From an uncultured Gammaproteobacteria bacterium (GTDB lineage Bacteria; Patescibacteriota; Patescibacteriia; UBA2591; CALHIP01), in contig CAYVCK010000002.1 of the NCBI GenBank assembly GCA_964450195.1, forward strand, positions 1 through 31,251: DNA of 31,251 nt, read 5' to 3'. A model generated the notes under the pieces. That model searched no databases and was not told the DNA's origin. It saw only the letters and a list, made by a program, of their open reading frames with translations. Positions 21,022-28,946 of this stretch are shown piece by piece. The position numbers and the translations under genes were made by a program. Every line of letters starts with the position of its first letter. The stretch's first letter is position 1.

Positions 21022-23491
21022 AATTATGACCCCCCTAAAACTTATTTTATGGTTTAATGATGTTGGCATTAAAGATGTGCCTTTGGTGGGCGGCAAAAAT
21101 GCTTCGTTGGGCGAGATGATTCGTCATCTGGGAAAGAAAATTAATATTCCAGATGGTTTTGCTACTACTTCTTTTTTTTATTGGCAGTTTCTTAAAACAG
21201 CAAGACTGAGACAAAAGATTAAAGAAGTTTTAAAGGGTTTAGATGTTCATAATATAAAAAATTTAAAAGAAAGAGGAAGCAAAATTCGTAATTTGATTTT
21301 AGAGACAGAATTTCCGCCTGAATTAAAAAAAGAAGTTGTTAGAGCCTATCAAAAACTTTGTCAAAAATATAAAACTGAGAACTTAGATGTGGCAGTTCGT
21401 TCTTCGGCTACAGCCGAAGATCTGCCGAGCGCCAGTTTTGCTGGTCAACAGGAATCGTTTTTAAATATTCGCGGCGAAAAACAACTTTTGATAACTGTTA
21501 AGAAGTGTATAGCATCATTATTTACTGATAGGGCAATTTCTTATCGGGAAGATATGGGTTTTGATCACTTAAAAATTGCCTTATCAGTTGGTGTCCAAAA
21601 AATGGTGCGTAGTGATTTAGCCTGTGCTGGGGTGATGTTTTCCTGTGATACAGAAACTGGTTTTTCTAATGTGGTTTTAATTAATACTTCTTATGGTTTG
21701 GGCGAGAATATTGTCAAAGGCCGAGTTAGTCCAGATCAATATTATGTTTTTGAAACAACCTTAAAAAAGGGATTTCGACCAATCGTTGAAAAAAAAATAG
21801 GCAGTAAAGAAACAAAACTTATTTATGATAAAAAAAGAGGAACAAAAAATATTCCTGTACCAAAAGAGAAACAAAGAAAATTTGCTTTAAATGATGATGA
21901 AATTTTAACTTTGGCAAAATGGTCGTGTCTAATCGAAGATCACTATCAACGACCAATGGATACTGAATGGGCAAAGGATGGCTGCGATGGACATTTATAT
22001 ATTCTTCAAGCCCGGCCAGAAACAGTGGTTTCTAGAAAAAAAATTGATGTTTTAGAAGACTATATATTAGAAAAGTTCAAAGTTCAAAGTTTAAAGTTTA
22101 AAGTTCTATGTGAAGGTTTAGCCATTGGTTCGAAAATTGGTCAAGGGAAAGTTAGGGTGATTAGAAGAATTAAAGATCTGGTTAAATTTAAAAGTGGTGA
22201 GGTTTTGGTAGCGAAAGTTACTAATCCTGATTTTGAACCGGTAATGAAAATTGCCTTAGCAATTATTACTGATAGCGGCGGGAGAACATCTCATGCGGCG
22301 ATTGTTTCTAGAGAGATGGGCGTGCCTTGTATTGTCGGTACCGGCAAAGCAACAAAAATTTTAAAAAATGGCCAGGTCGTAACCGTTTCTTGCGCCGAAG
22401 GAGAGAAGGGTTTTGTTTATCAAGGATTGCTTCCTTTTAAAATCACAAAAATAAATATCGCTAAACTTAAACGGCCAAAAACAAAAATTATGATGAATTT
22501 GGGCGAACCAGACCGGGCTTTTGGTTTATCTTTTATTCCTAATGACGGGGTTGGTTTGGCGCGTGAAGAATTTATTATTGCTAATCAAGTTAAAATACAT
22601 CCACTTGCTTTGCTCAATTATAAAAAACAGCCGGCCAAAATAAAAAGACAGATTGATCAATTGACTTTTAGCTACAAGGATAAAAGGCAATTCTTCATTG
22701 ACAAATTAGCTGAGGGGATTGCTAAAATTGCGGCTGCTTTTTATCCCAAGAATGTTATTGTTAGGTTTTCTGATTTCAAAACCAATGAATATGCCAATTT
22801 AATTGGCGGCGCTCAGTATGAACCAAAAGAAGCTAATCCAATGATTGGCTGGCGCGGCGCTTCCCGTTATTATGATAAAAATTTTAAAGAAGCCTTTGGT
22901 TTAGAGTGTTTAGCCATTAAAAAAGTTCGTGAAGAATTCGGTTTAGATAATCTGATTTTGCTAGTGCCATTTTGTCGGACGCCAGAAGAAGGCCGGAAAG
23001 TCCTAAGTATTATGGAAGAGTACGGACTTTCTCGCGGATCAACGCAGATCAAAACTCGGATCAACACAGATATCCGCGTAAATCAGCGTAGAAATCTGCG
23101 TTTATCAGCGTTAAGGGTCTTTGTGATGGCCGAGATTCCTTCTAATATAATTTTAGCCGAAGAATTTGCTAAGATTTTTGATGGATTTTCCATTGGTTCA
23201 AACGATCTTACACAGCTTACTTTAGGTTTAGATCGTGACTCAGAACTTGTTGCCCATATTTTTGATGAAAGAAATGAAGCGGTGAAAAATTTAATTCGTC
23301 ATCTAATAAAAATTGCTCATCGCTACGGCCGAAAAGTGGGCATCTGTGGTGATGCGCCTTCAACTTTTCCTGATTTTGCTAAATTTTTAGTAGAAAGTGG
23401 CATTGATTCTATTTCTCTGGCCCCGGATGCAGTGATTAAAACAACTTTAGAAATTTTAAAAACTGAACAAAGGCTAAAATTTAAAAAATAA
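21014..23491 (+). CDS. ppsA: Phosphoenolpyruvate synthase
   Basis: VGGKNASLGEM, VAVRSSATAEDLP.ASFAGQQ, GGRTSHAAIVSRE, SIGSNDLTQLTLG. Confidence 0.97.
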   Translation: MTKIMTPLKLILWFNDVGIKDVPLVGGKNASLGEMIRHLGKKINIPDGFATTSFFYWQFLKTARLRQKIKEVLKGLDVHNIKNLKERGSKIRNLILETEFPPELKKEVVRAYQKLCQKYKTENLDVAVRSSATAEDLPSASFAGQQESFLNIRGEKQLLITVKKCIASLFTDRAISYREDMGFDHLKIALSVGVQKMVRSDLACAGVMFSCDTETGFSNVVLINTSYGLGENIVKGRVSPDQYYVFETTLKKGFRPIVEKKIGSKETKLIYDKKRGTKNIPVPKEKQRKFALNDDEILTLAKWSCLIEDHYQRPMDTEWAKDGCDGHLYILQARPETVVSRKKIDVLEDYILEKFKVQSLKFKVLCEGLAIGSKIGQGKVRVIRRIKDLVKFKSGEVLVAKVTNPDFEPVMKIALAIITDSGGRTSHAAIVSREMGVPCIVGTGKATKILKNGQVVTVSCAEGEKGFVYQGLLPFKITKINIAKLKRPKTKIMMNLGEPDRAFGLSFIPNDGVGLAREEFIIANQVKIHPLALLNYKKQPAKIKRQIDQLTFSYKDKRQFFIDKLAEGIAKIAAAFYPKNVIVRFSDFKTNEYANLIGGAQYEPKEANPMIGWRGASRYYDKNFKEAFGLECLAIKKVREEFGLDNLILLVPFCRTPEEGRKVLSIMEEYGLSRGSTQIKTRINTDIRVNQRRNLRLSALRVFVMAEIPSNIILAEEFAKIFDGFSIGSNDLTQLTLGLDRDSELVAHIFDERNEAVKNLIRHLIKIAHRYGRKVGICGDAPSTFPDFAKFLVESGIDSISLAPDAVIKTTLEILKTEQRLKFKK

Positions 23492-23518
23492 GTTTTACTT
23501 GATAAATTTGGAAACGCT

Positions 23519-23551
23519 AAAAAGTCGAGGGCATCTGAGCCTCGACTTTTT
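23519..23551. terminator. Bidirectional intrinsic terminator
   Basis: AAAAAGTCGAGG-N9-CCTCGACTTTTT. Confidence 0.85.
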
Positions 23552-23718
23552 TCTTTTATAATTACTCTATGTCTGGACCGGTTGGGCCTCCTCTGGATTT
23601 AAAACAGCCGCTTTTCAACCTGTCTCTGGGTTGATCTTTTCCTTGTTCTTCTTTTTTTTGCCTGAATAGACCAGACCGAAGTGGTTGGATGGTACACTTT
23701 AGAAATTTTTGTCAAGAA

Positions 23719-23788
23719 TTCTATCGAGATTCTATCGAGAATTCTATCGAGAACGTTTCTCTATAGTGGATCTCTATAGTGGATCTCT
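23719..23788. repeat. Two adjacent short tandem duplications
   Basis: (TTCTATCGAGA[A]) x3 and (TCTCTATAGTGGA) x2 plus a partial copy. Confidence 0.85.
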
Positions 23789-27210: not shown

Positions 27211-27411
27211 TATTTTTGATTTTTGAGATTTGATTTTTGATTTTAGCGAAGCGCTTGATGCTTGTGGTTATGCGATTGAAAACGCCTTAGAGCTTTCTAT
27301 ATTATTAAAGCAAAAACCGTCTTAAAAATTATAACGATCGTTATAAAAAATAAGACAAGGGAAAAATGAGTAAAAAATAAAAATTTAAAGCCCGCGAGTT
27401 TATTTTGATTT

Positions 27412-27898
27412 TTACTCGCAGGCTTCGATGATAAAGAGATGGGTTCCATATTCGACGGCATCACTCTCTTTGACGAGAATGTTTTTGATTTTATACTTCT
27501 TGCCGACAAATAGTGATTTCGAGTTTAGATTGCCATTTGGTCCTTTTTCAAAAACAAGTTTTTTCTTATCTAAAGATTCTAAGTCAATATAGTTTTTAAG
27601 TTTTAAAACTTTAATGCAGCAGAGTACGCTTTCAAAATTGATATCATCTCCTATTTCTACTGTTGTTTGATTTTTTTCGTCTTGGAGGGAAAATCTGCCC
27701 ACAAGAGGCGAAAGAAGGACAATTTGTTCTTTAGGGGCTAATTTGACTTGAGGGGCAGCCGAAATAGCGCCTTTAACAAACCTAAATTTTAAGTTTTCAG
27801 ATTGATAAACAACTTCTGTCTGGGGTGGGTGTCTGGGGTGAGCAAGAAGCGAATAAATCGGCGAGTGTCTCTGGCAGCTCTTTTGTTTGCTTGTTCAT
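27412..27898 (-). pseudogene. AccB-like biotin carboxyl carrier protein frameshifted by a 13-bp tandem duplication
   Basis: SD AAGGAGGTG and ATG 27898. Removing one TGTCTGGGGTG+GG unit (27817..27840) gives a 157-aa ORF with LSPLVGRF, IKVLKLKNYI and ILVKESDAVEYGTHLFII. Confidence 0.75.
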
Positions 27899-27922
27899 TC
27901 AGCACCTCCTTTTTAATAAAAT

Positions 27923-28946
27923 ATGGCTAGTCAAGTCAAGGTAGATATTTTATTAAAGAAAAATCTTAGTGGGCTAAAAATTAATGAGCCATTAAAAAAA
28001 TGGACAACTTTTAGAATTGGCGGTCCAGCTAGGTATTTTTTTATGGCTAAAAATGAAAATGATTTAATCAAAGCCATTAGTTTGGCCAGAAAATTAAAGA
28101 TTCCTTATTTTATTTTAGGTGGCGGAAGCAATATATTGGTGTCAGATAAGGGGTTTGAAGGAATGGTTATTAAAATTTCCACCTTCGCTAAAGCTTCGGT
28201 GGACAAGCAAAATTCAAAAATTATTGCTGGCGCAGGAGTTCGATTAAGTAGTCAATTTTTTTGTTCAGCATGGTTTGACTGGTTTTGAGTGGGCGGTGGG
28301 TATTCCCGGCACTTTGGGTGGGGCAATTTGGGGAAATGCTGGAGCTTATGGAAAGTCAATAGCGAATCTTGTTGAAGAGATTAAGGTTTTAGAAGTTCTG
28401 GAGAGAAAAAATCAAAAATCAAAAATCAAAAATCAAAAATACAAACCAAAAATTAAAAAATTTTTAAACAAAGATTGTCGTTTTGGCTATCGAGACAGCA
28501 TTTTCAAGCATTATAAAGACTTAATTGTTCTTTCAGCTATTTTAAGGTTAAAAAAGGGGAATCGAAATAAAATTAAAAGAGAAATCTTTAAAATTTTAAA
28601 AAAGCGAAAAGAAAAAATTCCTTCTGGTTTTTCGGCTGGCTGCGTCTTCCGAAACTACCAACTACCAACTACCAACTACCAACTATTTGACAAATATCCA
28701 CAGTTGCAAAATTTTAGAAAAACTGGTACAATTCCAGCTGGATGGTTGATTGAAAAGTCTGGTCTTAAAGGTAAAAAAATAGGCGAGGCTAAAATTAGCG
28801 AAAAGCACGCTAATTTTATTATTAATCAAGGCCGAGCTAAGGCAAAAGATGTTTTAAAACTTATGCAGATAATTAAAGAAAAGGTTAAAAATAAGTTTGG
28901 CCTTAGATTAGAAGAAGAGATAGAATATCTCGGCCTTCGGCCTTGA
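27923..28946 (+). pseudogene. murB: UDP-N-acetylenolpyruvoylglucosamine reductase, split by a frameshift near 28250
   Basis: N-half has TTFRIGGPA and ILGGGSN. C-half has GIPGTLGG...GNAGAYG, SAGCVFRN, HANFIIN and LEEE. The frames are offset by +1. Confidence 0.88.

Follow-up and report, generated by a model that had tools for sequence, protein, structure and literature searches.

The Rickettsia palindromic elements (RPEs) are dispersed palindromic repeats lying in frame in unrelated housekeeping genes, where they are tolerated as a surface peptide; about half of their loci are intragenic (Ogata et al. 2000, reviewed in PMC10969869). Two further systems join a dispersed repeat to a gene: REP and REPIN sequences are dispersed short repeats whose inverted copies flank the RAYT gene (PMC3733652), and the Ssn proteins of Neisseria are GIY-YIG single-strand nucleases found with dispersed NTS repeats which they recognise (PMC11893778). 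The stretch of DNA analysed here, referred to as the window, comprises 31,251 nucleotides of contig CAYVCK010000002.1 (assembly GCA_964450195.1) from an uncultured groundwater bacterium placed by GTDB in the Patescibacteriota, and carries a 39-nt module in two unrelated genes, ppsA and a DUF72 gene. The module is probably one arm of a type of inverted short-repeat end found on either side of genes for GxxExxY nucleases; gene and arms occur together as in-frame cassettes, and the arms also as nuclease-less derivatives. The identification of 39-nt arms as the inverted ends of GxxExxY nuclease cassettes is new; the literature on in-frame palindromic elements in the candidate phyla radiation (CPR)/Patescibacteria and on GxxExxY/PF13366 gives only "function unknown, multiple transfers", and no published description of an arm-nuclease-arm cassette family was found.

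The ppsA gene (21014..23491, + strand; Pfam PPDK_N, PEP-utilizers and PEP-utilizers_C, NCBIfam phosphoenolpyruvate (PEP) synthase) hosts two arms in inverted orientation. The right arm (23072..23110, +) consists of four ATCNGCG units laid out as 7+3+7+5+7+3+7 with 0 mismatches to the pattern, and is read as IRVNQRRNLRLSA with ATC as a codon; the left arm (23033..23071, +) follows the same layout with four CGCNGAT-type units, two of them degenerate, giving 2 mismatches, and together the arms form a 78-nt two-arm element. The DUF72 gene (26443..27210, +; Pfam DUF72) contains a single right-type arm (26842..26880, +) of the same four-unit layout, likewise with ATC as codon and read as IRANLRLNPRQSA; no left arm lies upstream of it. 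The first-pass annotation had described a shared layout and frame for the two modules, which is exact in sequence and coordinates, and had taken the PpsA module as the right arm of a palindrome of about 78 nt, which the inverted arm at 23033-23071 bears out.

The genome to which the window belongs (G000) measures 817 kb in 108 contigs and is 97.5% complete. A single cassette in it is intact, that of valS; the other copies, about 29, lack the nuclease and take the form of two-arm palindromes of 78-80 nt (the ppsA type) or of single arms (the DUF72 type). In the valyl-tRNA synthetase (ValRS) on contig 27 a PF13366/TIGR04256 domain (GxxExxY, PD-(D/E)XK) occupies aa 240-354, exactly between a left and a right arm; the cassette is an 80-nt element with the nuclease open reading frame (ORF) placed between its arms, everything being in frame with valS. 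This in-frame copy retains the catalytic-type motifs G..E..Y, (P)DF and EIK and is 66% identical to nucleases found in LepA and RecG of other classes. The modules of the window match the arms of full cassettes in unit, spacing, polarity and frame.

Full cassettes in other lineages occupy sites at which G000 carries nuclease-less elements. In two metagenome-assembled genomes (MAGs) of Saccharibacteria, LepA contains a full cassette in the hairpin just before the DTPGH motif; the LepA of G000 has a nuclease-less element at that position with an identical right junction (QRESAFILNLIDTPGH), and the LepA of the relative G015 also shows arm units at this site. RecG contains a full cassette between helicase motifs II and III in G005, G022 and L116, and a two-arm element stands there in the RecG of G000; G000 and L116 also have a second RecG site in common. 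That the element recurs at conserved motifs of distant lineages is consistent with homing, and its spread across 19 genes of one genome with transposition or mobilisation in trans. As a side observation, the LepA site-2 element of G000 (contig 7, 7865-7975) is 111 nt long and still in frame, its length being due to a second small palindrome (CCCCGTTAGATACGAAGTTATCTAATGGGG, + strand) nested between the right-arm units.

The association of nuclease and arms extends beyond in-frame cassettes. Two arm-pattern matches bracket a free-standing PF13366 gene in G025, and in other phyla, among the matches listed, 11 loci have a PF13366 gene directly beside or between modules (Saccharibacteria, Bacteroidales, Flavobacteriaceae, Draconibacterium, Aequorivita and Balneolia). 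PF13366 genes elsewhere are flanked by inverted arrays of other units (TACGAAA, ATTAGTA, ATTTGTA and GTCNGYG), as are the three free-standing PF13366 genes of G000; the nuclease copies of this genome, on contigs 27, 3, 21 and 1, differ in their cognate repeats. Scored for inverted 6-mer arrays, the four genes reach 3, 3, 2 and 1, and a score of 3 is reached by 2 of 633 control genes, so that the score sets the nuclease genes apart from the controls. A PF13366 gene bracketed by inverted short-unit arrays is found on contigs 27 and 3 of G000, in G025, in G005/G022 and at the 11 loci of other phyla. The GxxExxY nuclease may act on the arms.

With a profile made from four full copies, nhmmer detects 30 module loci in G000, and a pattern search for four ATCNGCG units at the spacing 7+3+7+5+7+3+7 finds 28 arms; the same pattern read backwards, used as the control, gave 0 matches in the set of 31 genomes of relatives and in the phylum set of 301 genomes. 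The heptamers themselves are clustered, with 153 of the 377 in the genome falling within 2164 bp. Of the loci, 27 lie wholly within long ORFs, with Pfam domains to either side of the locus; since the crude coding fraction of the genome is 83%, coding copies are not depleted. The 19 host genes encode LeuRS (four loci), ValRS (three), RecG, LepA and a methyltransferase (two each), and with one locus apiece PGK, SecA, NAD(P)HX dehydratase, ThrRS, RuvX, acetyl-CoA synthetase, an RsmI-like methylase, TsaD, TrmD, PheS, GatB, an NFACT-like protein, PpsA and DUF72. Module loci have 49% GC in a genome of 35.7% GC.

The three intergenic copies (C43:3935-4014, C104:649-792 and C15:7097-7182) consist of left-type arms only; those on contigs 43 and 104 are each preceded by a TTCGACCTTTCT-like motif, and a similar TTGACACTTTCTACA adjoins the arm in Terrimonas copies. 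A motif of this type beside the arms may be a promoter or a second recognition site.

Frame analysis covered 23 arms within ORFs. All 15 sense arms are read in one frame, giving the peptide I[RS]xNQRxNQRxSA, and the eight antisense arms use two frames only, giving RINADxNADKRG or RxSTxIKTRINAD; three of the six frames are never used, and the arm peptides are hydrophilic linkers. The arm units retain ATC and GCG, which across the genome account for no more than 17% of the codons for Ile and 15% of those for Ala; this points to constraint, or to the youth of the copies, at the level of DNA rather than of the peptide. The arms fall into two subtypes, and their spacers are A-rich on the coding strand in both left and right arms, from which it follows that the polarity of the element is that of the host gene. 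Programmed translational bypass, which occurs in yeast mitochondria, was considered as a means of skipping the inserts and rejected, since all intragenic copies are open and keep to one fixed frame. A conserved hairpin is doubtful: the spacers of left and right arm are 28% complementary, so that pairing is through the units only, and RNA folding gives a z of -3.7 for the ppsA element and only -1.3 for the DUF72 arm.

At the protein level the DUF72 arm gives a net gain of 7 to 12 aa; the protein exceeds close relatives by 7-10 aa in a variable loop, and its alignment with the solved TM1631 (PDB 1vpq) shows a 12-aa gap at the arm. An AlphaFold2 model of DUF72 (pLDDT 87) has the module ending a helix and forming the least confident coil of the protein. 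In PpsA 27 residues stand where same-family relatives carry a 9-aa basic loop, a net gain of 17 to 21 aa, and 21 residues have no counterpart in the solved PEP synthase PDB 2ols; the element replaces the native loop and is not a clean insertion. In same-family relatives LepA (sites 1 and 2) and LeuRS (sites 1 and 4) have clean gaps, and the orthologues of LepA, LeuRS, RuvX, PpsA and DUF72 have gaps or short native loops at the insert sites. The RuvX proteins of G015 and G019 are about 35 aa shorter than that of G000, and a RuvX query had no match in G001-G003. A variant of the RuvX of G000 (C10:7568-8086; P0005 versus P0006) in one Logan assembly is identical through the palindromic element and has a shorter, different C-terminal tail; the position of this difference in an A-rich repeat tract suggests frameshift-type variation.

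The position of the inserts in variable loops, and the fact that MAG assemblies can be chimeric, would also be expected if the peptides were native low-complexity loops under protein-level selection, or if the inserts were assembly artefacts. This explanation is very improbable: identical DNA units are present outside coding sequence and in either strand orientation, where they yield different peptides, rare codons are retained, and the inserts are missing from orthologues; the inserts are identical in the assemblies of JGI and Logan, which shows that they are not assembly artefacts. The module is instead best read as one end of a GxxExxY cassette, and the following account is proposed for it. 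In Patescibacteria a GC-rich cassette lineage with ATCNGCG units resides inside genes, the whole cassette being inserted in frame in a surface loop; the ribosome would read through the insert, with the arms encoding hydrophilic linkers (RINADxNADKRG ... I[RS]xNQRxNQRxSA). As the arms double as linker-coding sequence, such an insert can survive in the surface loops of essential proteins, and the inserts are likely to be translated and tolerated as loops. The modules of the window would be nuclease-less remains or derivatives of in-frame GxxExxY cassettes, and solo copies may either have lost their nuclease ORF or have been mobilised in trans.

The distribution of the module is patchy. It is absent from all three genomes of same-family relatives, and within the phylum the arm type occurs in 7 of 301 genomes, with G000 the highest at 26 and the next at 9. 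The exact module is present in at least 118 stretches of a species-level genome collection, among the matches listed in Bacteroidota, many Patescibacteria lineages, Omnitrophota, Cloacimonadota, Proteobacteria, Acidobacteriota, Planctomycetota and Chloroflexota; among these matches it lies mostly in long ORFs and in the same frame in Patescibacteria, and is mostly intergenic in Bacteroidota. The sequence of the window was present in six groundwater or subsurface sequencing runs. This distribution bears on a second explanation, in which nuclease and repeats form a system serving the host, the arms being phased binding or cleavage sites for DNA uptake, repair or recombination and the coding copies being useful. 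The ATCNGCG units are indeed spaced by about one helical turn (10/12/10 nt), the GC-rich units persist against codon usage in a 36% GC genome, and Ssn shows that transformation can be modulated by a small nuclease whose own dispersed repeats frame it (PMC11893778). A host-serving system is nevertheless unlikely, as the patchy occurrence, with no copy in the same family, argues against a needed host function; decayed copies are present (LeuRS site 4 and LepA site 1), and sites within essential proteins are costly.

A third explanation is an ordinary family of the miniature inverted-repeat transposable element (MITE) or REP type, moved by an unrelated transposase (HUH/Y1 or DDE) or a reverse transcriptase, with the nuclease as a frequent passenger. 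The two-arm palindrome resembles a MITE made of two terminal inverted repeats, and the arms of G015 occur without a detectable nuclease. This too is unlikely: neither a Y1 transposase (Y1_Tnp, PF01797) nor a reverse transcriptase (RVT_1) gave a match in the 97.5%-complete genome, target-site duplications were not found, and the arms bracket the nuclease in many phyla. The HUH/Y1 or reverse transcriptase partner that the first-pass annotation had anticipated thus gives way to the PD-(D/E)XK GxxExxY gene.

Several results weigh against the module as a cassette end. No direct repeats flank the 11 elements examined, so target-site duplications were not seen; no pair of arms is alike at more than 12 of 15 variable positions, as recent copying would leave them; and the few near-identical proteins on record from independent assemblies include no presence/absence variants. 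G015 has no PF13366 match despite 8 arms, and several relatives carry PF13366 but not the ATCNGCG arm type. The best 120 homologues of PpsA all lack a full cassette at this site, and the ppsA copy is therefore untraceable to one. The contrast of conserved units and free spacers is partly one of ascertainment, because arm detection needs intact units, and the non-complementary spacers make a conserved hairpin doubtful. The family shows no sign of current activity (no duplications, identical copies or polymorphism), and the description of it as active in the first-pass annotation is not borne out. A wider scheme is proposed tentatively, and is doubtful as a whole: GxxExxY genes with heptamer-array arms would be an unrecognised mobile class that homes into conserved loops of essential genes and is read through as an internal domain, with nuclease-less palindromes as footprints or landing pads, about 20 core enzymes remodelled, and the AT-rich heptamer arrays of intergenic DNA and of many protein linkers as sister families of the same machinery.

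Two further in-frame repeat classes, period-7 arrays and a small hairpin in MurB, are separate from the module, and the earlier treatment of all these repeats as one family has to be given up, two of them replacing residues. Tandem arrays were called with TRF. G000 has 95 strong arrays of period 7. No other period exceeds 20, and genomes simulated under the Markov-2 null contain 0-1 arrays of any period; 45 of the 95 lie within ORFs, and the typical length is 31-37 nt. In PpsA an array (AAAGTTY)5 (22072..22106, +; 5.0 copies) occupies a variable interdomain linker, in which the orthologue of G002 carries (AAAAATC)3 at the same place and that of G001 is 6 aa shorter. The orthologues at LeuRS site 1 carry arrays of different units (AAATTCA, AAATTTC or CAGATTT), and relatives hold heptamer arrays where G000 has the GC-rich element at LeuRS site 3 and at MurB site 1. 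The differing units at orthologous sites indicate that arrays turn over in place at permissive sites.

The murB gene (27923..28946, +) is interrupted by a +1 frameshift, one extra T in the T7 run 28256-28262, and so forms two ORFs (27923-28288 and 28275-28946); deleting one T of the run restores ...SQFFVQHGLTGFEW..., colinear with orthologues, and sequencing error, a real lesion and slippage are all possible causes of the frameshift. Its small hairpin (TCCACC...GGTGGA; 28178..28203, +; fold z -2.5) is read as STFAKASVD and belongs to a family of 4 genome copies, all in ORFs and with covarying stems; it adds only 3 aa, and relatives have a KIQNSKF-type heptamer array at that stretch. The array (AAAAATC)n (28407..28459, +; TRF, 7.7 copies) adds 12 aa relative to five orthologues and is the only clear length gain among the MurB repeats, while (AACTACC)4.7 (28653..28685, +; TRF, 100% matches) overwrites the (AAAATTC)n-type array of relatives with no change in protein length. 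The in-frame inserts claimed at first pass are thus all present; alignment supports insertion at the LepA and LeuRS gaps and at (AAAAATC)n of MurB, and shows that the PpsA element and the other two MurB repeats take the place of existing residues.

An AT-rich family of arms built of TACGAAA units, whose full layout is 7+1+7+3+7+1+7, is represented in the window by an intergenic arm (29652..29677, - strand). Of the 13 arrays that the family has in G000, 11 fall outside ORFs; its units also flank the free-standing GxxExxY gene at C3:7504-7839. With module loci mostly inside ORFs and TACGAAA arrays mostly outside them, the GC-rich family is intragenic and the AT-rich family intergenic.

Other observations concern the arrays and the homologues of PpsA. 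A 35-nt array of five heptamers (AAAATCA type) directly downstream of DUF72 (27211..27245, +) is an inverted repeat of 4835-4869, 22 kb away and 100% complementary to it (35/35), which indicates that some period-7 arrays are dispersed copies and not products of local slippage alone. From 4835 to 4935 the AAAATCA-type array and a T-rich array form an imperfect palindrome ending 5 nt from a start codon. The motif TTTTAGC(G/A)AAGC recurs directly after intergenic T-rich heptamer arrays at window positions 4921, 15236, 27241 and 30265, these being 4 of its 6 genome copies. Contig 1 of G001 contains about nine clustered PpsA-like matches, a paralogue cluster in which most span only the mobile His domain region. 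The PpsA homologue P0038 (1211 aa) carries the intein splicing domain PF14890, so that PpsA hosts classical inteins too, in other organisms.

The association connects orphan in-frame palindromes of the RPE type with a concrete protein partner, of unknown function and widespread in bacteria, and so makes the way in which such repeats spread a testable question. Specific to this genome is its exceptional load of nuclease-less copies; about 1 gene in 40 of 0.8 Mb is affected, including five aminoacyl-tRNA synthetases, SecA, LepA, RecG and GatB, and for in-frame selfish-type DNA in essential genes this load ranks with the heaviest known. Also specific are the division of the two arm families between coding and intergenic DNA and the coexistence, at the same permissive sites, of two additional classes of in-frame repeat. 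For annotators, RINADKRG, ISVNQRKSA, KIQNSKF and SFAKASxDK in Patescibacteria proteins should be regarded as repeat-derived and not as lineage-specific functional motifs.

The comparison with Rickettsia drawn at first pass is upheld for behaviour: like the RPEs, the module is a dispersed palindromic family of a small genome, in frame in unrelated housekeeping genes, absent from the orthologues of the closest relatives and mapping to loops. It differs from them in that 27 of 30 loci are intragenic as against about half, in its occurrence across phyla, in being built of phased 7-nt units rather than one long consensus, and in having a coding partner, the GxxExxY nuclease, with the same ends; to our knowledge no protein-coding partner is known for RPEs. 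As this unit architecture is unlike a single consensus of 100-150 bp, RPE-like behaviour is claimed and not RPE identity. The two 39-nt arms in inverted orientation correspond to the terminal inverted repeats of a MITE, but the 11 elements examined have no target-site duplications, and the valS cassette, which has the same ends and so occupies the place of the MITE partner, encodes a PD-(D/E)XK protein of unknown function rather than a known transposase. Heptanucleotide tandem repeats of the short tandemly repeated repetitive (STRR) type were reportedly described by Mazel et al. in 1990 in heterocystous cyanobacteria; the period-7 arrays resemble them as many short tandem arrays of 7-nt units scattered through a genome, and differ in phylum, in units, in that 45 of the 95 strong arrays lie in ORFs, and in that the orthologous sites of relatives carry other units.

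Inteins and homing endonuclease genes are nuclease-coding inserts in frame at conserved sites of essential genes, and the cassette likewise stands at conserved sites (LepA DTPGH, RecG motifs II-III) and recurs in distant lineages; unlike inteins it has repeat arms, its nuclease-less copies are numerous in many genes, and, as it has no splicing domains, the insert appears to stay in the mature protein. With REP/RAYT the cassette shares a small gene between inverted copies of a dispersed repeat, and gene copies with different cognate repeats; its enzyme has the PD-(D/E)XK fold, not that of an HUH Y1 transposase, it carries neither a GTAG nor a CGTC tag, each arm is a four-unit array, and the copies are mostly intragenic. 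With Ssn/NTS it shares a small nuclease gene associated with a dispersed repeat, recognition of the arms being putative here; its partner is PF13366/TIGR04256 and not GIY-YIG, and the NTS surround genes whereas the arms sit in frame inside them. RPEs are therefore the closest behaviour in print, and REP/RAYT and Ssn/NTS the closest logics of a gene combined with its repeat.

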